A stretch of DNA of 64,000 nt from Candidatus Levyibacteriota bacterium (GTDB lineage Bacteria > Patescibacteriota > Microgenomatia > Levybacterales > GWA1-39-11): the NCBI GenBank assembly GCA_039738415.1, contig JBCLLY010000006.1, positions 1,814 through 65,813 on the forward strand, written 5' to 3'. Below are positions 1-61,646 of the stretch, one piece after another. The notes beneath the pieces are model-generated. The model worked only from the letters and a program-made list of their open reading frames with translations. It was not told the DNA's origin and did not search any database. The translations under genes were made by a program, and so were the position numbers. The first letter of the stretch is position 1; each line of letters begins with the position of its first letter.

Positions 1-630
1 TCTATTACGGTAAAAGAGGCTCCAGTTACTACTTCGTATCTTTTAGTGCCACGGACTAACCAGGATGTTATAGATGCTCTTGCTACGCTTAGACCATTAT
101 TTAATAAACCTGCTGATAAAAGCCTCACTCTAACACTACAAATGGGTTCATCTAATGACAACTCAATGGGTGGACACATGATGGGTAATGACCAGATGAT
201 GGGAAATAGTCAGATGTCCATGGGAGATGTGCAAAAAATTGAGTGGGAAGACGATATGGAGATGATGAATGCTGCCTCAAATACCAAAACGCTCAAATGG
301 AAGCTTGTTGATCAAGATACAAACAAAGAGAATATGGATATTAACTGGCAGTTCAAAAAAGGTGACGTTATTAAGATCAAAATCTTTAATGATGATAAAT
401 CTATGCATCCCATGCAGCATCCGATTCACATACACGGGCAACGTTTCCTAGTGCTTTCAAAAAACGGTCAAAAGAGCTCAAATCTGGTTTGGAAGGACAC
501 AGCCTTGATTCAGACTGGCGACACAGTTGAATTTCTGGTTCAGATGGATAATCCTGGTAATTGGATGATTCACTGCCATATCCCAGAGCACATGGAAGCA
601 GGCATGATGAGCGAATTTAAAGTAATTTAA
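1..630 (+). CDS. multicopper oxidase, C-terminal cupredoxin domain (5' end outside window)
   Basis: Frame is open from base 1 with no stop upstream of the GTG at 46. Copper-ligand motifs HPIHIHG and HCHIPEHMEAGMM. TAA stop at 628-630. Confidence 0.8.
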   Translation, partial: SITVKEAPVTTSYLLVPRTNQDVIDALATLRPLFNKPADKSLTLTLQMGSSNDNSMGGHMMGNDQMMGNSQMSMGDVQKIEWEDDMEMMNAASNTKTLKWKLVDQDTNKENMDINWQFKKGDVIKIKIFNDDKSMHPMQHPIHIHGQRFLVLSKNGQKSSNLVWKDTALIQTGDTVEFLVQMDNPGNWMIHCHIPEHMEAGMMSEFKVI

Positions 631-831
631 ATGAAAACGGAAGCAATTTTGACTTGCCCCAAATGTGGTGAGGAACAGAAAGTAACAATACCGACTGACG
701 TATGACAACATTTTTACAAATGTCAAAAATGTGGTGAGATGTTGAAACCAAAAGATGATGATTGTTGTGTTTTCTGTTCCTACGCTGATATTAAATGTCC
801 GCCAAAACAAACTGAAGAACAAAATAAATAA
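631..831 (+). CDS. GDCCVxC-type small Cys-rich metal-binding protein, selenoprotein candidate (in-frame TGA at 703-705) or disrupted gene
   Basis: ATG at 631 directly abuts the oxidase stop. Translation MKTEAILTCPKCGEEQKVTIPTDV[TGA]QHFYKCQKCGEMLKPKDDDCCVFCSYADIKCPPKQTEEQNK. Contains CxxC, CxxC and a DDCCVFC...CPP motif. TAA at 829-831. Missed by the ORF track because of the TGA. Confidence 0.55.
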
Positions 832-931: not shown

Positions 932-1177
932 CTATTTCTTCTTAGTTATTTTATATTTTTGAAAGGCAAGTGTAAGCCAAAGCGATGCTACGATAAATGT
1001 TAAAACAGCACTTCCCCATAGTGATAATGTAGCAAAAGAGAATGCAAATGTATAAAGAGTAATTGACGTTAGAATACTTGTAGCAATAGCGGGTTTGTTT
1101 TTGCCAACGATGGATGGGATTAAAGCCACTATAAAGACTAAATTTCCCACAACGAAGACATAGTCTTGCCAAATCAT
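932..1177 (-). CDS. small hydrophobic membrane protein (about 3 TM segments), function unknown
   Basis: 81-aa ORF made almost entirely of hydrophobic helices, with a lysine-rich C-terminus. Lies inside a segment flanked by 20-nt direct repeats. Confidence 0.5.
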   Translation of the reverse strand: MIWQDYVFVVGNLVFIVALIPSIVGKNKPAIATSILTSITLYTFAFSFATLSLWGSAVLTFIVASLWLTLAFQKYKITKKK

Positions 1178-1240
1178 TCTTTAATAATAGTTTAACAGCG
1201 TACCAGACGCAACTATATAGTAAGTCTTTGAATGTACAGG

Positions 1241-1260
1241 AGTAATTCTAAATAGATAAG
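1241..1260. repeat. 20-nt direct repeat, copy 2 (AGTAATTCTAAATAGATAAG), overlapping the typA 3' end
   Basis: See copy 1. The two copies are 330 bp apart and bracket the 81-aa ORF. Confidence 0.85.
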
Positions 1261-3101
1261 GCTTGTCTTGTCTGAGAGCGGTCGCGGCGTGCTGCAGCTT
1301 CGTCAAGAATAATTTTTCTAATCCTTATATTTTTTGGAGTTACTTCAACTAGCTCATCATCCGCGATATATTCCAGCGCGTCTTCAAGTCCCATAATCTT
1401 TGGTGTTCTAAAATATTCAGTGACTCCATCTCCTTTAGAGCGCATATTTGTTAAATGCTTTGTTTTGCATACATTTATACCCAAATCATCACTTCTCGCA
1501 TTTTTCCCTACAACCTGACCTTTATATACAGGAGTTTGAGGTCCTATAAAAAGCAGTCCTCTGTCCTGAATATTTGCCAGTCCGTATTGGTTAGAAATAC
1601 CTGTCTCGTGTGCTACCAGCGACCCTTGTTCGCGCTCGTGAGTATATCCATTGTCCGGTGCGTATTCGTGAAAAAGAGTATTAATTATTCCCAAACCTTT
1701 TGTGTCGGTCACAAGTTCTCCGCGGTAACCAAATAATCCCTTTGAAGATACGATAAAATCCAGTGACGCAATTCCATTATCAGAGCGCATATCCCTCAGC
1801 TCACCCCTACGCTCTCCCATTTTCTGGATTACTGTTCCCAAATACTCTTCAGGTACTTCGATAAATACTTGCTCGTATGGTGTTAGTTTTTTACCATCGA
1901 TCATTTTGTCAATTACTTGTGGTCGTCCGACTTGAAATTCAAAACCCTCCCTGCGCATTCTTTCAATTAAAATTGCCAAGTGCAGTTCCCCACGTCCCGA
2001 TACTATCCACCCGCCTTGACTACCAATAGGCGAGGCAGGCCCACCGACAGAATTATTTTCAACGCGTAGTGCCATATCGGTCTCAGTCTCTTTGTAAAGT
2101 CTTTGTTCAATTTGACGTGAAGTCTTGAATTCTCCTTCATGTCCTGCAAAAGGTGAGTTATTTACCATAAATTGTGCGCGGATAGTTGGCTCTTCAATTT
2201 TAAGTAGGGGTAGTGCTATCGGATTATTAATATCTGCTAGCGTTTCTCCTATTACAGGTTCCGGTATTCCGGCAATAGCGACTATATCTCCAGCTTGAGC
2301 TTCTTTTACTTCTACTTTATCAAGACCCAAAAATGTCATAAGAGAGCTAATCTTTTCTTTTTTTACTTGCCCACTTCTGTTAATGTGAGCGATTTCCTGT
2401 CCAGAGGTAATTGTTCCGTTATATATCCGGCCTATTGCAATGCGTCCCTTGTGTTGGTCGTTGGCAAGAGTTGTTATAAGCATTTGAAGAGGCGCGTTAG
2501 GATCAACAACCGGTGCCGGAATTTCTTTAAGTATGGTTTCAAATACCGGCGTTATGTCAGTCATGTCCGCCAATGATTCAGTAAGTCCTGCTTTACCATT
2601 TTTTGCGCTAGCATAGATTATAGGAAAGTCGGCAGTAATATCATCTGCGCCTAATTCTAAAAAGAGATCTAGGGTTTTGTCCAATACATAGTGTACTCTG
2701 GCATCGGATTTGTCAATTTTATTTACAACTACAATTATTTTATGTCCCATCTCAAGCGCCTTTTTCAAAACAAATCTTGTTTGGGGCATAGGACCTTCTT
2801 TTGCGTCAACTAAAAGCAGACATCCGTCTGCCATCCCTAAAACTCTTTCGACTTCTCCTCCAAAATCAGCGTGACCCGGCGTATCGATAATGTTTATTTT
2901 AACGCCCCCCCACATGACAGATGCATTTTTAGAAAAGATAGTAATTCCGCGTTCGCGCTCCAATTCATTACTATCCATGATAAGAGTTTGCGCAGTATCC
3001 TTGTGCATCTGCGTTCTAGACTGAGTTAATAGAGCGTCGACCAGGGTTGTTTTACCATGGTCAACGTGTGCAATTATTGCTATGTTTCGAATGTCATTCA
3101 T
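1248..3101 (-). CDS. typA: translational GTPase TypA/BipA
   Basis: N-terminus [22 protein letters not shown] with [14 protein letters not shown] and NKID G-motifs. Length 617 aa. SD AAGGAGGA lies upstream of the ATG. Confidence 0.9.
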
Positions 3102-36601: not shown

Positions 36602-38371
36602 TTAACTTTTAATCCAGCTTAATAAGTCATCATAGGGCAGTGTGTTGATGATGTCTTCTTTTCCACACCAACCTCGTCTCGCAACAGCTACCCCGTATTT
36701 CATATTATCCATATGTTTGGCTGCGTGACTGTCTGTGTTAATAACAAATTTACATCCTTTTCTCTGTGCCTCCAGTACAAGATCATCTCTCAAGTCAAGG
36801 CGAGTTGGCCATGAGTTTATTTCAAGTGCTTTATTATTTTTCCTCACAAAATCAAATATCATATTCCAGTCTGCATCGTATCCATTTCTTTGATTAATAA
36901 GTCTACCTGTAGGATGCGCAAATATTTTTGCTTTAGGGTGGGAAAGGCCGTTTAGTATTCTTTTTGTCATTTTCTCCCCGCCGGTTTTAAATGAACTGTG
37001 AACAGATACTATCGCCATATCAAGAAGTTCTAGGCATCTATCGCTGAGAGCAAGCTCTCCTGAGGTCAAAATGTCTATTTCGAGTAAATTAATTATTCGT
37101 ATATTTTTATTACTCTTTCTAAGTTGTTCAATTTTGTTATTCCTTTTATCAAGTATTTTATAAATTTCCTCCTCACTGTGATTGCCTATACTGGGATTAT
37201 GCTCAGAAAATCCAAAATATTCGTATCCCAAATCTCTTGCCTTATCGATCATTGCCTGCATCGAATCACTACCCAAATCATGGCTTGGTTTAATGGGGTA
37301 GTCAGAATGTATATGAAAATCTCCCTTTATGTCTTTTTCTTCAATAAGTTTTGGTAGCGACTTTTTAATACTGGCCTCAATTTCTCCATTATTTTCCCTC
37401 ATTTCAGGCGGAATCCACTCTAGACCAAGGAAATTGTAAAGTGCCTTTTCTTCTTTGAATTTTTTTAAAGTTCCATTTTTAAGCTTAATTCCCTTCTCGG
37501 AAAGCGAATAGCCTTTTTTTAATGCATATTCACGTAATTTCACATTGTGTTCCTTGCTCCCCGTAAAATGCTGTAGAAGAGAGCCTATTTGGTCAGGATT
37601 TAGAACCATAAGGTCAATTTGCTTATTTCCTGATAAGATTATTGACGCTGTTGCGCCACCTTTTTCAATAACTCGGTCTTTATTCGGATAATTTACAAAA
37701 TGTTCGATAACCTTTGCCGGTTTGTTAGAAGTTACTCCGATATCGACGTCTCCAATTGTCGATTTTTTACGCCTCAGGCTGCCTAGTGGATATACTTCAA
37801 TGGTCTCTTTTTCTTTTTTCAGGTACAAAACCATATTATCAGCAATTTCCTGCGCAAGCGGGAGAACCATTCTTGAGGATTTTGTTTTACCCAGCTTATA
37901 TTCATCGATTGCTTGAATGATGTCGGCTTGGGATTTTTCTCCAAAAGTGTCAAGTGAAGCTATCTTATTATCATGTGCCAATTTATAAATTTGACTGATA
38001 ACTTTGTTGGGTTCATCTAGGTCAAATGCCTCGACCAGTTTGAATGCTTTTTTGGGTCCAAAGGAGGGTATATCTAAAAGAGGAAAAATTGCCGGTGAGA
38101 CTTCTTTCAAAATATCATCGAAGTGTTTTACTTCTCCCTTTTCAAATAATTCAATCAGATATGTCTTAATGCCTTGCCCAACACCTTCGAGCTTGTCTAA
38201 TTGTCCTTCTGATATTAAATCTTTTACTTGCCTACTAGAGCCTTCTATGGAATTGGCTGCTTTTTGATAGGCAAGTATTTGAAACCTATATTTTGCTTCA
38301 TTTTTAATAGTATAAGCGCTGGCTACATTACGCAATAGTTTTGCTATGTCCTCATTTGTAAAAGACTTCAT
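36602..38371 (-). CDS. polX: DNA polymerase X family protein with C-terminal PHP domain
   Basis: The ATG at 38369-38371 (MKSFTNEDIAKLLRNVA) is preferred. The longer track ORF would overlap tRNA-Asp. Contains GSLRRKKSTIGDVDI and a C-terminal PHP domain (HIHSDY). Confidence 0.85.
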   Translation of the reverse strand: MKSFTNEDIAKLLRNVASAYTIKNEAKYRFQILAYQKAANSIEGSSRQVKDLISEGQLDKLEGVGQGIKTYLIELFEKGEVKHFDDILKEVSPAIFPLLDIPSFGPKKAFKLVEAFDLDEPNKVISQIYKLAHDNKIASLDTFGEKSQADIIQAIDEYKLGKTKSSRMVLPLAQEIADNMVLYLKKEKETIEVYPLGSLRRKKSTIGDVDIGVTSNKPAKVIEHFVNYPNKDRVIEKGGATASIILSGNKQIDLMVLNPDQIGSLLQHFTGSKEHNVKLREYALKKGYSLSEKGIKLKNGTLKKFKEEKALYNFLGLEWIPPEMRENNGEIEASIKKSLPKLIEEKDIKGDFHIHSDYPIKPSHDLGSDSMQAMIDKARDLGYEYFGFSEHNPSIGNHSEEEIYKILDKRNNKIEQLRKSNKNIRIINLLEIDILTSGELALSDRCLELLDMAIVSVHSSFKTGGEKMTKRILNGLSHPKAKIFAHPTGRLINQRNGYDADWNMIFDFVRKNNKALEINSWPTRLDLRDDLVLEAQRKGCKFVINTDSHAAKHMDNMKYGVAVARRGWCGKEDIINTLPYDDLLSWIKS

Positions 38372-38443
38372 AAGTAGTATGATACCACACGCACAAATCA
38401 CATTGACGTTGGACAACTTATTTGATAGTATAATGTGAATTGT

Positions 38444-38517
38444 GGGGTGGTAGCTCAGTTGGCTAGAGCGCTTCCCTGTCACGGAAGAGGTCGCGGGTCC
38501 GAGTCCCGTCCATCCCG
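38444..38517 (+). tRNA. tRNA-Asp (GTC)
   Basis: Acceptor GGGGTGG/CCATCCC, anticodon arm CTTCC-CTGTCAC-GGAAG, T arm GCGGG-TCCGAGT-CCCGT. No encoded CCA. Confidence 0.9.
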
Positions 38518-38528
38518 CAACGTCGTCG

Positions 38529-54077: not shown

Positions 54078-54434
54078 AAGAAGGAAAGATTATGCGATTT
54101 GGGAGCGTAGACAGTATTAAAAGTGATGCTTTGACTGTACTGTAGGTTCTTTAAAGCCGTCGGAAATCCCGACAAACTGAATTTTCATCCAATTCTCCCT
54201 CCAAAGGCGGGTAGACAAGAACCTTGGAATGAACCATAAATTTGCAAGTTGGCTGTAGATTAATTACTTAAATCCCAATTAATCAAGGTATTTTAAAAGA
54301 CTTAGAGAACAGCGGTGGGCTCAAATACCGCGCCGCATCTAGACATGCTTGGCTTATACGCGAGGGAATATGCCCAGTCTGATTAATTCTTCTTTTCTGA
54401 ATCCTTCCGTGAAATTTGGAGTTACTAAGGATTG

Positions 54435-55073
54435 ATGCATTCTGGCACGGTTTGTATTGCTTTTGGTTCAAATGAGGGTATAATTTCACTTATGGTCGAA
54501 AATTCTATTCATGAAAAAGCAATGCTCCTTATAAATGGGGAGCAAAGTGAGTTTGTAAGTAAAATTGAGGAAATTATTGCAATTTCTAACCTTGTTGGCA
54601 AACAAACTGAAATGGGAAATTGCGTAATGCAATCATTTCTATTAGGTGAACTTTGCTTAAAGCCTGATGTTGCAAAACAGCTCTATCCCGATCTTGGCTT
54701 AGACCAAGCATTGAAAAATACAGGATCCGTGCGTACTAACTTTAACAGTAGAGTTAAGCCACATGGACTTAAAATTGGTCAAGAACATTCTCCGACTACA
54801 TATTTTTATGAACTAATTGAACCAGCGGATAAAGTTAAAAAGAAAATTAGAGAAAAGCCTACGGAACATATACTTTCAATGCAAATGATCGCAGGAGTAA
54901 GTGTTCCACTAATTAGGGACCATAACCATCATTGGGTAATAGCCGAAGCAAACGGGCCAGTTTCTGATGGTAGATGTAAGGGTTGTGGAGAACACCGTGT
55001 ATACCGAAATTCGCTATCTGAGGAACAAATAAATCCCAACAGGAATTTCAATAGGCATTCCCGTCGAGACTAA
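54435..55073 (+). CDS. hypothetical protein with a C-terminal CxxC motif
   Basis: Long ORF. Start is uncertain (ATG at 54435 or 54492). The C-terminus DGRCKGCGEHRVY carries a single CxxC. No family recognised. Confidence 0.45.
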   Translation: MHSGTVCIAFGSNEGIISLMVENSIHEKAMLLINGEQSEFVSKIEEIIAISNLVGKQTEMGNCVMQSFLLGELCLKPDVAKQLYPDLGLDQALKNTGSVRTNFNSRVKPHGLKIGQEHSPTTYFYELIEPADKVKKKIREKPTEHILSMQMIAGVSVPLIRDHNHHWVIAEANGPVSDGRCKGCGEHRVYRNSLSEEQINPNRNFNRHSRRD

Positions 55074-55080
55074 AGGATTT

Positions 55081-55140
55081 TACCTTAAATAGTGCACCTT
55101 ACCCTTGTCAAAAGAGGGGAACAGTCCCCTTATTTGAGTA
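55081..55140 (+). repeat. intergenic repeat family T, copy 1 (27-nt core TACCTTAAATAGTGCACCTTACCCTTG plus hairpin AGGGGA-ACAG-TCCCCT and a T-rich tail)
   Basis: The core is identical to 56972-56998. The second half is similar to 57024-57053. Terminator-like hairpin at 55115-55130. Confidence 0.8.
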
Positions 55141-55286
55141 GCATATCGACTCCATCTTCATTCCTCGCTTAAGGAAATGAATTTAGTGATAAAATTGCAG
55201 ATGTGAGGACTTATCAATCCTCTGGTGAAATTTACCCATTCGGTATTCTAAATATTCAAGATTATTGAATATAAACTAACATACGT

Positions 55287-55796
55287 ATGCAAATAAAATT
55301 AAAAAGACCAACTCTTCCGACTCTATTATTAATTCTAGTTGTCTGTGTCCTTGCGATAATTTCCATATTTCTTTTTGCTGCTAATAAAAAAAATGGGGAT
55401 TGGAAGACTTACATCAATTACCGTTTCAATTATTCAATTAGCTACCCAAAAGATTGGAAAGAAGGCAGAGTAGCAACAAATGGCGACGGTAGAGCATTAT
55501 ATAAAGACAATTCTAATGAAATCTTAGTTTACGCAAGCTATATGCTTTGGTCCTTTTCTCAGCAAGATGCTCCAATTGAACGTAATATATTTACTACAAC
55601 TAGTGGAATAAGAGCAACATCTCTTAAAGAAACGAAGAATGGAAAAGTTAAATATATTGTATTTTTTACACTGAAAAATAAAAAGGATAATAACTTAGAA
55701 ACTCAATACGTTTTTAATGTAAATGTAACTGAAAAGTTTTTTAAAGCTAATGAACAAATTATTATTAAAGTTGCTAAAAGTCTCTCGCTTAATTAA
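55287..55796 (+). CDS. membrane-anchored hypothetical protein
   Basis: N-terminal TM (LPTLLLILVVCVLAIISIFLF) followed by a soluble domain beginning WKTYINYRFNYSISYPKDW. Confidence 0.5.
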   Translation: MQIKLKRPTLPTLLLILVVCVLAIISIFLFAANKKNGDWKTYINYRFNYSISYPKDWKEGRVATNGDGRALYKDNSNEILVYASYMLWSFSQQDAPIERNIFTTTSGIRATSLKETKNGKVKYIVFFTLKNKKDNNLETQYVFNVNVTEKFFKANEQIIIKVAKSLSLN

Positions 55797-55918
55797 TGGA
55801 AATAGATTGTAAACCTGCTTTGACTTAAATAAATAAAATTATAGAAAAAATTATTAAGAGAGTTAAACATGCATATTGCTTTATATATCAAGTGGATTTA
55901 TATATATAATAAAGCTAA

Positions 55919-56824
55919 ATGAGATCAAAAAAACATATTCTTATTATTGTACTGCTTGGACTATTAGTTGTTGCCGGATACCTTATTATTTCAAGAAACA
56001 AACCCTCCAAAATAGTTAAAACTACTCCCCCAATTACTGAAAGTAAATTTGAAGATGTTAAAGCCGATCTGAATGGTGATGGAAATCAGGAGACGCTTCG
56101 CTTGTCGTATACCAACTCAGAAAGGGAACCTGTTGTATCCCTAATTGCTTTAGATAAAAATGGAAAGGAAATAGGCAAGCTTCCAACAAGTATGCCAATT
56201 AAGGTACCTATGCCTAAAAGTGGAAAAGTACACACCCCTGTTAAAAAAGACAAAAATCAATTTGTAAGTTTTGATTTTTCCGTAGGTCCCCATTCTTCTG
56301 AAACAATGTTTTTTGGTCTTTTTCAACTTAAGACTGGTGGTATGGGAGTTTTACCTATATGTCTTACCGACAATGTAAATGGAGCCTCAGATTGCCTATT
56401 TTGGTCAGGAGAGGTTGGAGAACTAGCTGCTAAAGACTTAGACAATGATGGAAACTTAGAAGTTATAGAAATAGTTGATGAATATCCTAAAGATGGTCAA
56501 ATAACTACTGACACAGAAAAGATAATTAATGATGAATTTAAAGATATGGGTCAAGATGCGGTAAGTGGAATGACTAGAATTGCTAAACGCGAGCAGGGCG
56601 ATAGGGGCAATAAGGTTGTTTGGGGAATATATAAATTTAATGGAGAATATTTCAAAGAGCAGACAGGTAAAAATTACGATAGATACTATGACTTGGTAAG
56701 TAAGCACTTGAAGGCAACATATCCCAACTACCCGACAATAATGAAAAGGAATAGTATGAGCAAAGATTCTTTAGACTACAACTTGTCTATGCGACAGTTT
56801 TGGACCCATAGCGGCGGAAATTAG
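55919..56824 (+). CDS. membrane-anchored or secreted hypothetical protein with DxDxDG-type Ca-binding-like motifs
   Basis: N-terminal TM, then DLNGDGNQE and DLDNDGNLEV motifs (FG-GAP/EF-hand-like). Confidence 0.5.
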   Translation: MRSKKHILIIVLLGLLVVAGYLIISRNKPSKIVKTTPPITESKFEDVKADLNGDGNQETLRLSYTNSEREPVVSLIALDKNGKEIGKLPTSMPIKVPMPKSGKVHTPVKKDKNQFVSFDFSVGPHSSETMFFGLFQLKTGGMGVLPICLTDNVNGASDCLFWSGEVGELAAKDLDNDGNLEVIEIVDEYPKDGQITTDTEKIINDEFKDMGQDAVSGMTRIAKREQGDRGNKVVWGIYKFNGEYFKEQTGKNYDRYYDLVSKHLKATYPNYPTIMKRNSMSKDSLDYNLSMRQFWTHSGGN

Positions 56825-56971
56825 ACAACAATCGTAATAACTCAAGAATACCTGATAGCTTCACTTTTTTACTCACAAAAATTACTGCTTTAATTTTCAC
56901 TAGAAGCTCAAATGATTCGCAGAATCTTAAACTTTACCCCAAATACTCCTTGACTTACCTCAAACACTCCT

Positions 56972-57053
56972 TACCTTAAATAGTGCACCTTACCCTTGCA
57001 CTTCGGAGATCTCAGTGTAAACAAAAAGAGGGGCGCAGTCCTTTATGTGAGTA
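56972..57053 (+). repeat. intergenic repeat family T, copy 2 (with a 24-nt internal insertion)
   Basis: 27-nt core identical to copy 1. The tail AAAAGAGGGGCGCAGTCCTTTATGTGAGTA is a degenerate version. Confidence 0.8.
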
Positions 57054-57166
57054 CTTTTGTTCGTTTATTCGAACAATTGGTATAGAAAAGCTATTAATCT
57101 AATGGTTCGATATATTAGAACAATTGTTTTAGGTTTCTAGTTTTAAGTTTTACGTTTATTCTCCAG

Positions 57167-57341
57167 CCTCAGGAGAATACATTTTATTCTATCGTTTGAA
57201 TGGATGGTTTTGTTTAGTCTAATGTTTCGATACATTAGACTGGGTGTTTGAATTTATTTGGGAGTAGAGGTGAGGCCTCTATTCAGTTTATCTCAGGATT
57301 TGGGTTTCATTGGTGAAAAGGTCTCACCTCTACACGGTAAT
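57167..57341 (+). repeat. 175-bp direct repeat R, copy 1 (two internal hairpins)
   Basis: 169 of 175 positions identical to 60428-60602. Hairpin 1 at 57216-57241 (10-bp perfect stem AGTCTAATGT/ACATTAGACT, loop TTCGAT). Hairpin 2 at 57264-57333 (14-bp stem GTAGAGGTGAGGCC/GGTCTCACCTCTAC). Confidence 0.9.
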
Positions 57342-57359
57342 TTGTATTATAATTTTTAT

Positions 57360-57581
57360 ATGCCGATTATATTTTCTGATCACGCAAAACAGCAGTTGAG
57401 AAGAAGGAAAATACCCCAAAAATTAGTAATTGAAACAATTAAAAACTTTGAGGGTAAAGGCGCAAGTTTTAAGGAGCGTAAGTTGCGGCAAAAGACGTTT
57501 GGTGATAAAATATTGGAGGTGGTAACAAAGACCGAAGGATCAAAAGTAACGGTTATTACAGGTTACTATATTAATAAATAA
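57360..57581 (+). CDS. DUF4258-like protein (putative toxin of a two-gene TA-like pair)
   Basis: MPIIFSDHAKQQLRRRKIP... The ATG at 57360 sits 6 nt after TATAAT (57348-57353). The longer track ORF reads through repeat R. Confidence 0.6.
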   Translation: MPIIFSDHAKQQLRRRKIPQKLVIETIKNFEGKGASFKERKLRQKTFGDKILEVVTKTEGSKVTVITGYYINK

Positions 57582-57583
57582 TT

Positions 57584-57784
57584 ATGAAAATGAGATACGA
57601 TAAAAAAGTAGATGCAGTCTACATTGAATTGGCAAAAGGCTTATATGATAGTTCGCGCAAAGTGTCTGATGTGATTGTGGTGGATGAAGATAAAAAGGGA
57701 AAAGTTTTGGGAATAGAAATTTTGGATGCCTCTAAAAATATTAATGCATTTGACCCAAAATCTATATCTGTAGCTACCTCCTAG
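57584..57784 (+). CDS. DUF2283-like protein (putative antitoxin partner)
   Basis: YDKKVDAVYIELAKG...GKVLGIEILDASKNI pattern. Starts 2 nt after the upstream stop. Confidence 0.6.
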   Translation: MKMRYDKKVDAVYIELAKGLYDSSRKVSDVIVVDEDKKGKVLGIEILDASKNINAFDPKSISVATS

Positions 57785-57827
57785 TTTTTTTATTCAAGCC
57801 TTAATTTGTAACGAATACAATCTCAAC

Positions 57828-57887
57828 AAAATTCGCATCCCAGCCTTGACTAGACCGCCGAGTCTAGGCGGGCCAGCTACAGGAAAG
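57828..57887 (+). repeat. junction repeat J, copy 1
   Basis: AAAATTCGCATCCCAGCC-TTGACTAGACCGCCGAGTCTAGGCGGGCCAGCT-ACAGGAAAG. Confidence 0.85.
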
Positions 57888-57935
57888 TATATCTAGTATT
57901 CAATATGAGCGTGCGAGTGTAGTGGTTGCACAGAT

Positions 57936-57959
57936 GTATGATATATCGATATATCATAC
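57936..57959. promoter_or_regulatory. 24-nt perfect palindrome GTATGATATATCGATATATCATAC
   Basis: Exactly self-complementary. Intergenic, about 160 bp upstream of the KilA-N gene. Operator-like. Confidence 0.5.
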
Positions 57960-58067
57960 AGACAAGATGGGTAAATGGGGGGAAGTGAAACTCTTTTACG
58001 TAGAGGTTTTACTTTTATATAAACATAACACGCTGAGGGTTGATGACTAAATTCTAAAAATAGTAAT

Positions 58068-58204
58068 CCAGCCTCAGGAGTGATAATATAAATAAATCAG
58101 ACAAAGCCTTTTAAATTATGAAAAGTAAAAAAATAGAAGTGAAAGGAATTGTAATTGCCACATTTAGCAAAAACGAAAAAGACTATATTTCCCTGACTGA
58201 TATG
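58068..58204 (+). repeat. 137-nt exact duplication, copy 1 (KilA-N upstream region plus first 29 codons)
   Basis: Identical to 62098-62234. Confidence 0.9.
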
Positions 58205-58945
58205 GCAAAGTTTAAATCCTATGATAGTGGAATAGTCATTGCTAATTGGCTGTCAACAAAATACACAATTCAGTTTATGGGAGCTTGGGAACAATTACAT
58301 AATCCGAATTTTAATCTTATTGAATTCCATAAGATTAAAAGTGAAGCTGGATCAAATGGATTTATTGTTTCATCCTCATTTTGGATCAAACAAACTAAGG
58401 CAATTGGAATTATCTCAAGTGCAGGTAGATATGGGGGAACTTATGCCCATAAAGATATTGCTTTTGAGTTTGCAACCTGGCTTTCTCCAGAGTTCAAACT
58501 TTTTCTTATTAAAGAATTCCAAAGACTTAAGGCAGAAGAAAGTGAGCGGCTTGAATTGGGTTGGGATTTGAAAAGAACATTGGCAAAAATTAATTACCGT
58601 ATTCACACAGATGCGATTAAAGAGCATCTCATCCCACCAAAAATTTCTCAAAAATCAACTCAAATCATTTACGCCACTGAGGCAGATGTATTAAATGTAG
58701 CTTTGTTTGGAATAACAGCAAGAATATGGCGTGATCAAAATCCAAAAAGGGAGGGGAACATCCGAGACTATTCTACTGTAGAGCAACTGGTAGTACTCTC
58801 AAACCTTGAAGGAATGAATGCGGAATTTATCCGACAAGGACTATCTCAAAGCGCGCGACTAGTAAGACTTAATATAAATGCAATTTCTCAAATGAAGTCA
58901 CTTCTTGGAAACCCAGCGGTGAAAAAGTTAGAAAAACAAAAATAG
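58118..58945 (+). CDS. KilA-N domain-containing protein
   Basis: ISLTDMAKF...GRYGGTYAHKDIAFEFATWLSPEFKLFLIKEFQRLK, typical of the KilA-N family often found near restriction-modification loci. Confidence 0.8.
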   Translation: MKSKKIEVKGIVIATFSKNEKDYISLTDMAKFKSYDSGIVIANWLSTKYTIQFMGAWEQLHNPNFNLIEFHKIKSEAGSNGFIVSSSFWIKQTKAIGIISSAGRYGGTYAHKDIAFEFATWLSPEFKLFLIKEFQRLKAEESERLELGWDLKRTLAKINYRIHTDAIKEHLIPPKISQKSTQIIYATEADVLNVALFGITARIWRDQNPKREGNIRDYSTVEQLVVLSNLEGMNAEFIRQGLSQSARLVRLNINAISQMKSLLGNPAVKKLEKQK

Positions 58946-58948
58946 TAT

Positions 58949-58997
58949 CTCAGCCTCGACTAGACCGCCGAGTCTAGGCGGGCCAGCCACCGGAAAC
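58949..58997 (+). repeat. junction repeat J, copy 2
   Basis: CTCAGCC-TCGACTAGACCGCCGAGTCTAGGCGGGCCAGCC-ACCGGAAAC. Begins 4 nt after the KilA-N stop. Confidence 0.85.
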
Positions 58998-59006
58998 AGT
59001 TTTAAT

Positions 59007-59042
59007 ACGGAGAAGGTGTACCCCCAAATCACGGAGAAGGTG
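59007..59042 (+). promoter_or_regulatory. 12-nt perfect direct repeat ACGGAGAAGGTG x2 (24-nt period) upstream of a promoter
   Basis: Copies at 59007-59018 and 59031-59042. Possible regulator-binding sites. Confidence 0.4.
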
Positions 59043-59065
59043 AAATATCCGTCTTATACAAAGTG

Positions 59066-59093
59066 TTGAAATAATCTTAACTCATAGTATAAT
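59066..59093 (+). promoter_or_regulatory. sigma70-type promoter TTGAAA-N16-TATAAT driving a leaderless transcript of the 231-aa ORF
   Basis: -35 at 59066-59071, -10 at 59088-59093. The ATG at 59099 is 5 nt after the -10 hexamer. Confidence 0.6.
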
Positions 59094-59098
59094 GCGGT

Positions 59099-59794
59099 AT
59101 GAGTAATTTTAGAGAGGAAATGGACAAAGCAAGAAGGGCTGCTGAAGAAGCAAGTAGAAATAATCAAAAAAAAGTTGAAAAGTCAGAGTTGGATGTCAAT
59201 TCATGGGGATATCTCTGGAAAAAAAAGGAATTGCAAAAAGACTATCAGGGGATATATATAGAAAATGTTATAGTGCCAGTCATAGCAGAGGTGAGGCAAG
59301 TTTTAAACGAACAAAGAAAGGGAGATGAATGGTCAAGCAAAAGAGTGCAAGACCATGTTGACTTTAGAATCAACTGGCCAGGGGGTGACGGTGCTGAAGG
59401 GGCTGACCCACATACACAACACTATCATGAAATATTTGATGGCGTATTACTTACACAAGTACAAAAAACTGGACTGTTACGTAGACCAGTTGTACTACAA
59501 ATATTTTCCGGCTTTACTCAAGATGTACGGGAAGGCAGTGATATTTCACATACCGTTTTAATTAGGGCTGCATTAAGTTCTGATAGAAATAGATGTGCTG
59601 TTGAGCTAGGACAAAATCCAATTGATAGCAGTTATTATTGGATTCCGGGAAATAATGCTTGGATTCATCAAGTAGAACATAGTATTGAAAATATAATATC
59701 ACCATCCTCAGAAGTGGCTTCTAATGAGATGAGTAGACTACGTTCTCATCTTTCATCCATTGTTGTTTCTCTCCAAGGAAAAGGAAATATGTAG
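59099..59794 (+). CDS. hypothetical protein (231 aa), no recognised family
   Basis: Long ORF with a charged coiled-coil-like N-terminus. Locally more GC-rich than its surroundings. Confidence 0.5.
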   Translation: MSNFREEMDKARRAAEEASRNNQKKVEKSELDVNSWGYLWKKKELQKDYQGIYIENVIVPVIAEVRQVLNEQRKGDEWSSKRVQDHVDFRINWPGGDGAEGADPHTQHYHEIFDGVLLTQVQKTGLLRRPVVLQIFSGFTQDVREGSDISHTVLIRAALSSDRNRCAVELGQNPIDSSYYWIPGNNAWIHQVEHSIENIISPSSEVASNEMSRLRSHLSSIVVSLQGKGNM

Positions 59795-59812
59795 ATGGAG
59801 TATGTATAAATG

Positions 59813-59870
59813 AATTCGCATACCAGCCTCGACTAGACCGTCGAGTCTAGGCGGGCCAGCCACCGGAAAT
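59813..59870 (+). repeat. junction repeat J, copy 3
   Basis: AATTCGCATACCAGCC-TCGACTAGACCGTCGAGTCTAGGCGGGCCAGCC-ACCGGAAAT. Confidence 0.85.
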
Positions 59871-60061
59871 TTGTCCAGTTTGATCTAGTTGTTAATAGTT
59901 GACACTACAAATATAGTGGTTTAACATAATTTTGGATACTACATAGCAGCGGAATAGGAGAAGGAGATATGGGAAGAGTTTTTACATTTGAAATCACAGC
60001 ACCAAGGACGCACAAAAGCGACGGAGGTGTTTTTTTGTGGTTATTCTTATGAAAGGAGGTG

Positions 60062-60337
60062 ATGAAAATGAAAGAAAAAAAACAAAGTCAGGAAGTCCAA
60101 ATTAATTTCGATTTTGGTGCAGAACCAATTTTGTATACTGACTCAATTTTTATTACATCAAATGAAGATGGAATAATTATTAACTTCAGTCAACCTCAAG
60201 CCATTCCTACACAACAGAAAGTTGTAGCAAGAATAGGTATGAGTCGGGAACATGCCAAAAAGTTCATTCAAAAAATTAGCAATTTATTTGCTATTACTGA
60301 AAATAATAAGCAAATTGGTCAAAAGTCCCAGAATTAA
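60062..60337 (+). CDS. DUF3467-like protein
   Basis: ILYTDSIFITSNEDGIIINFSQ...KVVARIGMSREHAKKFIQKISNL resembles the DUF3467 pattern. SD AAAGGAGGTG upstream. Confidence 0.55.
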   Translation: MKMKEKKQSQEVQINFDFGAEPILYTDSIFITSNEDGIIINFSQPQAIPTQQKVVARIGMSREHAKKFIQKISNLFAITENNKQIGQKSQN

Positions 60338-60342
60338 CCTAG

Positions 60343-60370
60343 AGCCGGCTGGGAGAAATCCCACTCGGCT
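60343..60370 (+). other. hairpin AGCCG-gct-GGGA-GAAA-TCCC-act-CGGCT with a GNRA tetraloop
   Basis: Follows the DUF3467 stop. Its 5' arm contains GGCTGGGA, the reverse complement of the junction-motif core TCCCAGCC. Confidence 0.6.
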
Positions 60371-60427
60371 TGCTCCATTTCTGATCATAACAAAAAAATA
60401 AGGAAATTAAAATAATTAGGAAACTGA

Positions 60428-60602
60428 CCTCAAGAGAATACATTTTATTCAATCGTTTGAATGGATGGTTTTGTTTAGTCTAATGTTTCGATACATTAGA
60501 CTGGGTGTTTGAATTTATTTAGGAGTAGAGGCGAGACCACTATTCAGTTTATCTCAGGATTTGGGTTTCATTGGTGAAAAGGTCTCACCTCTACACGGTA
60601 AT
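60428..60602 (+). repeat. 175-bp direct repeat R, copy 2
   Basis: Six mismatches relative to 57167-57341. Same orientation, same length. Confidence 0.9.
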
Positions 60603-60644
60603 ATAGTGCTATGTGGATGGCCGAGGTTTTGGTTTCTTTAGATT

Positions 60645-61502
60645 TTAACTCCAGCTTTCCCCAAGATATTGAACAAGTAATTCGCGCAGTCGTTCTCCGC
60701 CAATAAGTTCAACATTGTTAACTTTCGCTAGCTGAATGGCTTCTGGAGTGAAATATGAGGTAGTAACAACCATAGCGCGCGTGCAATTATAAAGTTTTAA
60801 TGCAGTACTAGCTTCTTGCACCGCAGAATTACCAACGGATCCTGTATAGCACTTTGCTTGCACAACAACCCTTTCTGAGCCCATATTCACAACTAAATCA
60901 CAACCCTGATCACCAGTTTTACCTGTTTTCATAGCAGAGTATCCCATCGCTTCATATAATTTACATAAAAGAACTTCAAATTCAGTACCCGTTAATTGGC
61001 TAGTTGTATGAGGTATGCTTGCGATGCTGTCGCGGACAAATTTATCCTCTTTATTATAAATGTAATGCTTAAGTAGCAAGCTAATATCTTTATAGTCGTC
61101 CATAGAGAGTTTGACACCTTTGTCATGTAGCGCTTTTCTGAAGATTTCTAGCTGCTGCCATGTGAACGAGAACTCTCCGTCTTTCCATAAATCTTTTCCT
61201 GCCTTTTTTTGATAGCCAAGACTGTTTATAAAGTTTTTTATATTTTCATCAGCTCCAGCTTGTTTAACTGAATCAAGCAAATCTGATATTTTCTTCTTTT
61301 GTCTCTTTGATTGAAAATCATGCCATGCATAAATTCCAATCACTATGAGAACAAGTGCTATTGCGCCACCCCAAAGCAAGACAAAAAAAAGGGAGTTATT
61401 GGTTTTAAAAAGAGATACTAAATAAAAAGTAGCCAATACAAAAATAAAAAATATTATTTTTGCTAATGTGTAATCATTATTCCTATATCTCCCTCGAGCC
61501 AT
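60645..61502 (-). CDS. membrane-anchored restriction endonuclease-like protein (Mrr_cat-type PD-(D/E)xK domain)
   Basis: The ATG at 61500-61502 (MARGRYRNNDY) is preferred. Two N-terminal TM helices. C-terminus FEVLLCKLYEAMGY...GDQGCDLVV...VVQAKCY... Confidence 0.7.
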   Translation of the reverse strand: MARGRYRNNDYTLAKIIFFIFVLATFYLVSLFKTNNSLFFVLLWGGAIALVLIVIGIYAWHDFQSKRQKKKISDLLDSVKQAGADENIKNFINSLGYQKKAGKDLWKDGEFSFTWQQLEIFRKALHDKGVKLSMDDYKDISLLLKHYIYNKEDKFVRDSIASIPHTTSQLTGTEFEVLLCKLYEAMGYSAMKTGKTGDQGCDLVVNMGSERVVVQAKCYTGSVGNSAVQEASTALKLYNCTRAMVVTTSYFTPEAIQLAKVNNVELIGGERLRELLVQYLGESWS

Positions 61503-61646
61503 ATAATAATAGTAGCACATTTTTCTTAAGGACTGAAAGGAGCAATTAACAAAATTAAATGGGAATTCGCAAAATTCGCATCCCAGAATCAGGAGTGGTA
61601 GAATAGAGTTCATCGAATTAATGTTTAATAAGAAAATTAAAAATAT

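Follow-up and report, generated by a model that had tools for sequence, protein, structure and literature searches.

A GDCCVxC-family mini-gene with an in-frame TGA at the Cys/Sec position in a Levybacteria-like genome: probably a nonsense allele of a Cys-type gene

The 64-kb stretch of DNA analysed here (the window; all coordinates are window positions) carries, directly behind a multicopper oxidase gene, a 66-codon reading frame of the GDCCVxC family that is interrupted by a TGA at the codon at which members of this family have Cys or, in a few cases, Sec. With a probability that we put at roughly 0.7, this is a real nonsense allele of a Cys-type GDCCVxC gene, in which the UGA is read as a stop and the copy is broken. 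The window gene appears to be a previously unrecorded and probably defective member of a known family.

Reading frame and family membership

The features at the left end of the window that bear on the gene are the following.

1–630, plus strand: 3' part of a multicopper oxidase gene, truncated at the window start; stop codon TAA at 628–630; Pfam Cu-oxidase_2, E = 9.9e-26
631–831, plus strand: GDCCVxC-family reading frame of 66 codons plus TAA, with one internal TGA; identified by its NF041374 match and by alignments with 37 and 120 homologues
703–705, plus strand: in-frame TGA, codon 25, next base C, on the Cys/Sec column of the family
739–831, plus strand: residual 30-codon ORF from an ATG (Met37), including DDCCVFC; gene-calling software would report this ORF 3' of the stop

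The TAA of the multicopper oxidase (628–630) abuts the ATG of the frame at 631, as an earlier note on this DNA, made from the sequence alone, had described. From there the frame runs through 24 codons, the TGA at 703–705, which is its sole in-frame stop, and 41 further codons to the TAA at 829–831. Its translation is MKTEAILTCPKCGEEQKVTIPTDV-TGA-QHFYKCQKCGEMLKPKDDDCCVFCSYADIKCPPKQTEEQNK; the peptide string in that note was correct in the residues it gave but lacked the final six, TEEQNK. Downstream of the TGA the frame is intact. All eight other conserved cysteines (C9, C12, C31, C34, C45, C46, C49 and C56) are kept, together with the CCVFC core, and the ninth conserved position, 25, is the TGA. 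Two nearly invariant positions are altered in this copy, by M20I and G43D; the latter gives DDCCVFC in place of GDCCVFC, a variant that occurs once among 120 homologues. Exact-product look-ups, of the 30-aa product of the residual ORF in public assemblies and of the BipA of the window, found neither on record.

With Cys placed at codon 25, the translation matches the profile HMM NF041374 of NCBIfam, 'GDCCVxC domain-containing (seleno)protein', at 92.6 bits (88.8 bits with X at this codon), well above the curated cutoff of 40 bits. The match covers positions 2–57 of the 58 in the profile, so that the family proposed in the earlier note is borne out over the full length. A search of 5.8 billion proteins yielded 256 relatives, the best 120 of which are 64–84% identical to the window protein, have 64–112 residues and come mostly from Patescibacteria MAGs (Curtissbacteria, Woesebacteria and the Microgenomates group). 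In the alignment with these homologues the TGA coincides with the Cys/Sec column of the family, which among the best 120 of the 256 holds C in 117, S in two and R in one. The closest homologue among them (P0001/L011, 84% identical) has TGT at codon 25; a look at the codon used by relatives, one of the checks that had been proposed for this gene, thus shows that a single T-to-A change is sufficient to explain the TGA at 703–705.

The nearest relatives of the window gene are Patescibacterial Cys forms of 72–84% identity, such as P0001 and P0011 (the latter from Candidatus Curtissbacteria, 74%). They resemble it in length, in their full-length match to the profile, in all conserved cysteines except codon 25, in the CCVFC core, in the C-terminal KCPPKQ and in the kind of genes that they adjoin, namely those for multicopper oxidase, HMBD, rhodanese and DsrE proteins. 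They differ from it in having TGT or TGC at codon 25, GDCCVFC and Met20, where the window gene has TGA, DDCCVFC and Ile.

Loss of a conserved cysteine is not peculiar to the window copy. Among the 120 closest of the 256 homologues, 12 (P0024, P0027, P0035, P0047, P0058, P0060, P0071, P0090, P0098, P0099, P0110 and P0117) have lost one of the nine conserved cysteines through a change of one base in its codon, the replacement being Tyr, Ser, Arg, Trp or Gly, and P0027 has two such changes. Altered Cys codons in 10% of these homologues suggest either that this accessory gene often decays in Patescibacteria or that the short contigs contain sequencing noise. TGA versions of GDCCVxC genes would be invisible in protein databases. 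Given this and the frequency of substituted Cys codons, one TGA at codon 25 per few hundred sequenced copies is unremarkable.

For one of the homologues, P0067 (70% identical), the stated source is a Candidatus Hodarchaeales (Asgard) archaeon, which may reflect transfer between domains or an error in binning.

Host, genetic code and Sec machinery

AtpD and BipA encoded in the window share 73–98% identity with proteins from MAGs of Candidatus Levybacteria and other Patescibacteria; judged by these proteins, the host is a Levybacteria-like CPR bacterium. Its genetic code is the ordinary one. The 45 ORFs of at least 120 aa in the window end in TAA (27), TAG (13) or TGA (5), and the TGA-terminated ones include atpB and gatB, which makes UGA an ordinary stop in this host and agrees with the view of the earlier note that the genome as a whole is not recoded. 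Genome-wide reassignment of UGA (code 4 or 25) was considered and rejected: all 45 ORFs, the longest of 1072 aa, are open with table 11. A survey of the window for other in-frame TGA read-through candidates gave only off-frame noise inside known genes.

Neither SelA nor SelB nor SelD is encoded among the 45 ORFs of at least 120 aa in the 64-kb window, and tRNA-Sec is not among its four tRNAs (Asp, Gly, Lys and Glu), so the earlier statement that this stretch shows no Sec machinery holds. The host as a whole probably lacks this machinery.

The hairpin downstream of the TGA

Two overlapping hairpins can be drawn immediately 3' of the TGA.

706–744, plus strand: minimum-free-energy hairpin with a 9-bp stem (706–714/736–744), a weak 2+2-bp top and the loop GUCAAAA (722–728); -9.4 kcal/mol
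708–732, plus strand: 8-bp A-U-rich hairpin of the earlier note (708–715/725–732) with the 9-nt loop ACAAAUGUC; -3.5 kcal/mol

Both pairings described in the earlier note are present at the positions given there, and the one that it offered as an alternative (706–711/739–744) extends to 9 bp and belongs to the minimum-free-energy fold. Their stability is at chance level. The minimum-free-energy fold has z = -1.07 relative to shuffled sequences, 32 of 200 shuffles being as good, and 20% of 92 Cys-codon contexts in the window's own genes, which served as a control, pass the loose SECIS rules, with 10% reaching -9.4 kcal/mol. Among low-GC Cys-form members of the family, 4 of 14 (29%) pass the loose rules as well, among them L065 with its homologous hairpin.

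We compared the two hairpins with the rules for bacterial SECIS elements, that is, the Zhang and Gladyshev model as summarised in a 2026 review (PMC13188914). [quoted passage not shown] The minimum-free-energy hairpin satisfies the loose consensus only at minimum values (a 7-nt loop starting with GU, 16 nt after the UGA, at -9.4 kcal/mol), and the best hairpin in the window under the strict rules reaches -3.3 kcal/mol. Like the bacterial SECIS consensus of the E. coli fdhF type, the window has a stem-loop that follows the UGA directly and lies inside the coding sequence, with a loop that starts with GU at a distance of 16 nt. Unlike that consensus, it attains each criterion only at the minimum, and its 4-bp upper stem contains a mismatch.

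Comparison with the family itself is more telling. A covariance model was built from three real SECIS elements of the family (see below); it scores the true Sec forms at 50–55 bits, several Cys forms at 11–18 bits and the window at 8.7 bits, with three of the six pairs broken. A search of 560–960 against Rfam with E values up to 10 returned no SECIS family, only four chance sRNA/snoRNA matches. These results, and the presence of the same hairpin in Cys forms, do not support the earlier suggestion that the hairpin is a SECIS element, for which a covariance model had been named as a check.

The origin of the stem is evident from the codons that form it. Its two arms, 706–714 and 736–744, are the codons of Q26-H27-F28 and E36-M37-L38, and the stem arises from the reverse complementarity of CAG-CAU (Gln-His) and AUG-CUG (Met-Leu). 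Cys forms have this stem too: it is more stable in the TGT-containing L065 (-15.5 kcal/mol) and L063 (-11.4 kcal/mol), and it is also found in L061 and L012. Since it is made of conserved codons and is present in TGT relatives, the hairpin is best regarded as a by-product of the conserved peptide, with no adaptation to UGA.

More generally, CAR-CAU-UUY is complementary to GAG-AUG-YUG, and a stem right after the Cys/Sec codon is found family-wide, which predisposes SECIS predictors to false positives in this family.

True Sec forms of the family and the search for further TGA forms

None of the best 120 of the 256 database homologues contains U, and Sec forms were therefore sought at the DNA level. 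A protein-guided scan of IMG/VR contigs gave 47 loci, and in three independent, distant members of the family, L055, L056 (identical to L060) and L059, a TGA lies exactly at the codon-25 column. (The same loci recur under other labels: L055 as L108, L056 as L060, L069 and L070, and L059 as L109.) Each of the three has a canonical SECIS element with a 6–7-bp stem, a GUUG or GUG apical loop 22–23 nt after the UGA and a free energy of -12 to -22 kcal/mol. Between the elements of L055 and L059 there is a compensatory change from G-C to A-U, and the stem of L056 is completely different in sequence. Together with the 117 Cys forms among the best 120 database homologues, these members bear out the statement of the earlier note that most of the family has Cys at this position and a part of it Sec. 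A second scan of viral contigs, seeded with the Sec forms, found no further ones.

The window gene shares with these Sec forms a TGA at the identical alignment column. In other respects they are unlike it: their proteins are 43–45% identical to that of the window, their loci have 56–65% GC, and they possess a clear, G-C-rich SECIS element of a type that is missing from the window.

The Sec forms are cargo of prophage-like contigs, flanked by phage terminase or recombinase genes on one side and by integrase genes on the other. In L070 (4001–4189; the same locus as L060, L056 and L069) the Sec gene is situated between the genes for the small terminase, TerL and portal proteins and that for a tyrosine integrase; in L108 (4001–4186; the same as L055) its neighbours are the genes for a serine recombinase and a tyrosine integrase, one on each side, and a siphovirus Gp37-like gene is close by. 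It is unusual for a phage to carry a selenoprotein gene together with its SECIS, and the case may deserve follow-up.

TGA forms of the subfamily to which the window gene belongs were searched for with two DNA patterns, P-x3-TGA-Q-[HY]-F-Y-K-C and TGA-Q-[HY]-F-Y-K-C-x2-C, which would match the window gene itself but miss the distant Sec forms that have no QHFYKC. Neither the 185,579 species genomes nor the 241 million metagenome records that were scanned yielded such a form; as the window gene was not retrieved either, its own genome is not part of these collections. The patterns matched four times in genomes and six times in metagenomes, and all of these matches were rejected as promoter-like sequences (TTGACA...TATAAT) or unrelated coding sequence with no GDCCVxC gene.

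Genomic setting

The oxidase and the GDCCVxC gene lie on one side of a sharp boundary in the window.

1–845, strand not assigned: accessory segment with the oxidase and GDCCVxC genes; right boundary at ~845, left end beyond the window
932–3101, minus strand: conserved flank with the genes for an 81-aa membrane protein (932–1177) and the translational GTPase TypA/BipA (1248–3101)

Contig JBCLLX010000009.1 of a near-identical strain (GCA_039731645.1; BipA 98% identical) is ~99% identical to the window from 846 onward, and the common stretch includes the genes for the 81-aa membrane protein, BipA, IleRS, RodA, L21/L27 and ParB. Before 846 the two are unrelated, the contig ending ~400 bp past the breakpoint, and the oxidase/GDCCVxC segment, absent from that strain, is evidently dispensable. 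The same site differs among other relatives. In the Levybacteria clade of the window, the position downstream of typA/bipA and the gene for an 80–84-aa membrane protein is a variable cargo slot, seen at ~845 in the window and at the following loci.

L066, 12140–12653
L113, 7850–13812
L114, 7848–9173
L067, 11846 onward

The cargo consists of two unrelated small ORFs in the nearest strain and of a copper cluster in L113 (a CopZ-like HMA protein, a DsbD_2/cupredoxin protein, a Cu P-type ATPase and DUF305); of two further, distant relatives, one has tspO followed by ftsZ/ftsA and the other unrelated genes with an integrase. The differing cargo at this site and the break at 846 indicate that the oxidase–GDCCVxC pair is accessory DNA peculiar to this strain and lies in a hot spot for cargo. 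As a place where metal-resistance cargo is swapped in Levybacteria, the site downstream of typA/bipA may also merit further study.

Relatives of the gene are also found on mobile DNA elsewhere, with 353 plasmid records containing one annotated under the NF041374 name. Some of them come after merT or, in an ars operon, after ACR3 arsB, the stop codon of the one gene overlapping the start codon of the next. Examples are the genes after merT in Methylobacterium (NZ_CP155007.1) and after ACR3 arsB on pSCD of Sulfuricella, which are similar to the window gene in being small, abutting or overlapping a metal-handling gene and lying on mobile DNA; they differ in that they are Cys forms of 50–60% identity, whereas the partner of the window gene is a multicopper oxidase and its host a CPR bacterium. 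GDCCVxC genes thus appear to be translationally coupled to genes for thiophilic metals and metalloids (merT, ACR3 arsB and multicopper oxidase).

Two further observations concern other parts of the window. The stretch 54432–61613 has ORFs with no Pfam match (54432–55073, 55287–55796, 55919–56824 and 59099–59794) along with genes for a KilA-N domain protein (58118–58945) and an Mrr-type restriction endonuclease (60645–61613), and may be another mobile or defence region. A PolX-like ORF on the minus strand (36602–38482; DNA_pol_B_thumb and HHH_8) overlaps, at its 5' end, tRNA-Asp on the plus strand (38444–38518), so that its true start is probably further downstream.

Interpretation of the TGA

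According to the reading that we prefer, the TGT codon for Cys25 would have been changed to TGA by a single base change in a Cys-type copy of the gene, which would travel with the multicopper oxidase on a strain-specific copper island of a Levybacteria-like genome. The UGA at 703–705 presumably terminates translation. A stop at codon 25 would yield a 24-residue peptide, to which re-initiation at Met37 could at best add a 30-residue fragment; as termination at this codon leaves only fragments, the copy is most likely non-functional. The earlier note had offered, as one of its two possibilities, an acquired selenoprotein gene that does not function in a Sec-less host. Its idea of a non-functional gene is closer to the evidence, but the origin of the gene as an imported Sec form is disfavoured by the 72–84% identity of its nearest relatives, which are Cys forms, as against 43–45% for the true Sec forms.

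A different explanation, which we consider unlikely, is that the TGA came about by an error in assembly or consensus calling, or represents an allele from a minority of the population captured in the MAG, and that the true gene has TGT or TGC and is an ordinary Cys form. The TGA is one base away from the TGT of the closest homologue, the remainder of the gene is intact, and the locus is strain-variable, a setting in which assemblies mix populations; the contig of the near-identical relative, moreover, stops shortly past the breakpoint. Against this, the window gives no sign of an assembly problem at the site, and substitution errors in consensus sequence are, as is generally known, rare.

Quite improbable, in our estimate, is the other possibility raised in the earlier note, a real selenoprotein. 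It would imply that selABCD are located elsewhere in the genome, that the UGA at 703–705 encodes Sec, that the Q-H-F/E-M-L hairpin has been co-opted as a lineage-specific SECIS and that a recent Cys-to-Sec conversion took place within Patescibacteria. Several points are in its favour. The TGA falls on a proven Sec column, one codon of 66, and a random single nonsense mutation would land on codon 25 with a chance of about 1 in 36; the frame 3' of it is undamaged; and the hairpin marginally conforms to the loose SECIS rules for bacteria. In addition, about 13% of catalogued bacterial selenoprotein genes have no canonical SECIS (PMC13326102), bacterial SECIS elements are plastic, and Cys-to-Sec is the common direction of conversion in bacteria (PMC13188914). 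Yet there is no SECIS of the type found in the family (8.7 bits versus 50–55), the identical hairpin is present in TGT forms, and the nearest homologue has TGT. The TGA form is a singleton, with no counterpart of its subfamily in the genome and metagenome scans, and it is situated on a segment that a near-identical strain does not have. No Sec genes are present within the 64-kb window, and it seems implausible that a reduced genome would keep four Sec genes for one dispensable protein of 66 residues. Our literature searches yielded neither an account of Sec being used in Patescibacteria or CPR nor a paper that contains the term 'GDCCVxC'; the family is likewise absent from the bioRxiv version of Haft and Gwadz.

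If the gene did encode a selenoprotein, it would be the first one in Patescibacteria and, by implication, would reveal the first Sec machinery there; Sec would be used in an ultra-small, metabolically reduced lineage, and a very recent Cys-to-Sec switch on a mobile copper-resistance island would have been caught almost in the act. If it is a nonsense allele, as we think, the case is a caution: a stop on a known Sec column followed by a suitable-looking hairpin, which here is forced by the conserved peptide, can be an ordinary broken gene, and pipelines that call selenoproteins by aligning a TGA to a Sec column could mis-annotate it.

Very unlikely, finally, is a leaky stop, at which a near-cognate tRNA (Trp or, less likely, Cys) would occasionally read through the UGA, so that a little full-length protein is made and the gene retains part of its use: in E. 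coli no context is leakier than UGA-C, the base after the TGA at 703–705 is C, in contrast to A, A, T, T and G at the five genuine TGA stops of the window, and the downstream frame is intact, but read-through normally amounts to a few per cent at most, a protein with Trp instead of this nearly invariant Cys, a putative metal ligand, would probably not be active, and the genome and metagenome scans found no relative in which this arrangement is conserved.

Predicted structure and putative role of the family

The family profile has a weak match to the TFIIS zinc ribbon 1qyp (E = 3.9e-4). In the AlphaFold model of a Cys-form homologue, which is of only moderate confidence (mean pLDDT 74.6), two beta-hairpins with C9/C12 and C31/C34 are followed by short helices with CCVFC and C56. 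A Foldseek comparison of the model with the PDB gave no significant structural match, its weak matches to zinc ribbons having E = 0.17 at best. The predicted fold would accordingly be a 4-Cys zinc ribbon (C9/C12 and C31/C34) with a second thiolate cluster formed by C25, C45, C46, C49 and C56. The family resembles known 4-Cys zinc ribbons (the C-terminal ribbon of TFIIS and RPB9, archaeal ribosomal zinc-ribbon proteins and the N-terminal finger of Trx2) in its CPxC...CxxC arrangement and predicted pair of beta-hairpins; unlike the family, however, those ribbons have no counterpart of the extra five-Cys cluster (C25, CC..C and C56).

The profile match, the model and the gene neighbourhoods together suggest a zinc-ribbon scaffold on which the second cluster, of thiolates (or a selenolate), would bind soft metals or metalloids. 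A heavy-metal-binding HMBD domain (PF19335) is encoded directly upstream of the GDCCVxC gene, or fused to it, in the Patescibacterial relatives P0004 (112 aa), L061 (1103–1225), L063 (225–362) and L064 (37–174), and this association supports a role in metal handling. Members of the family are likely to act as small cytoplasmic binders or hand-off proteins for Cu, Hg or As.
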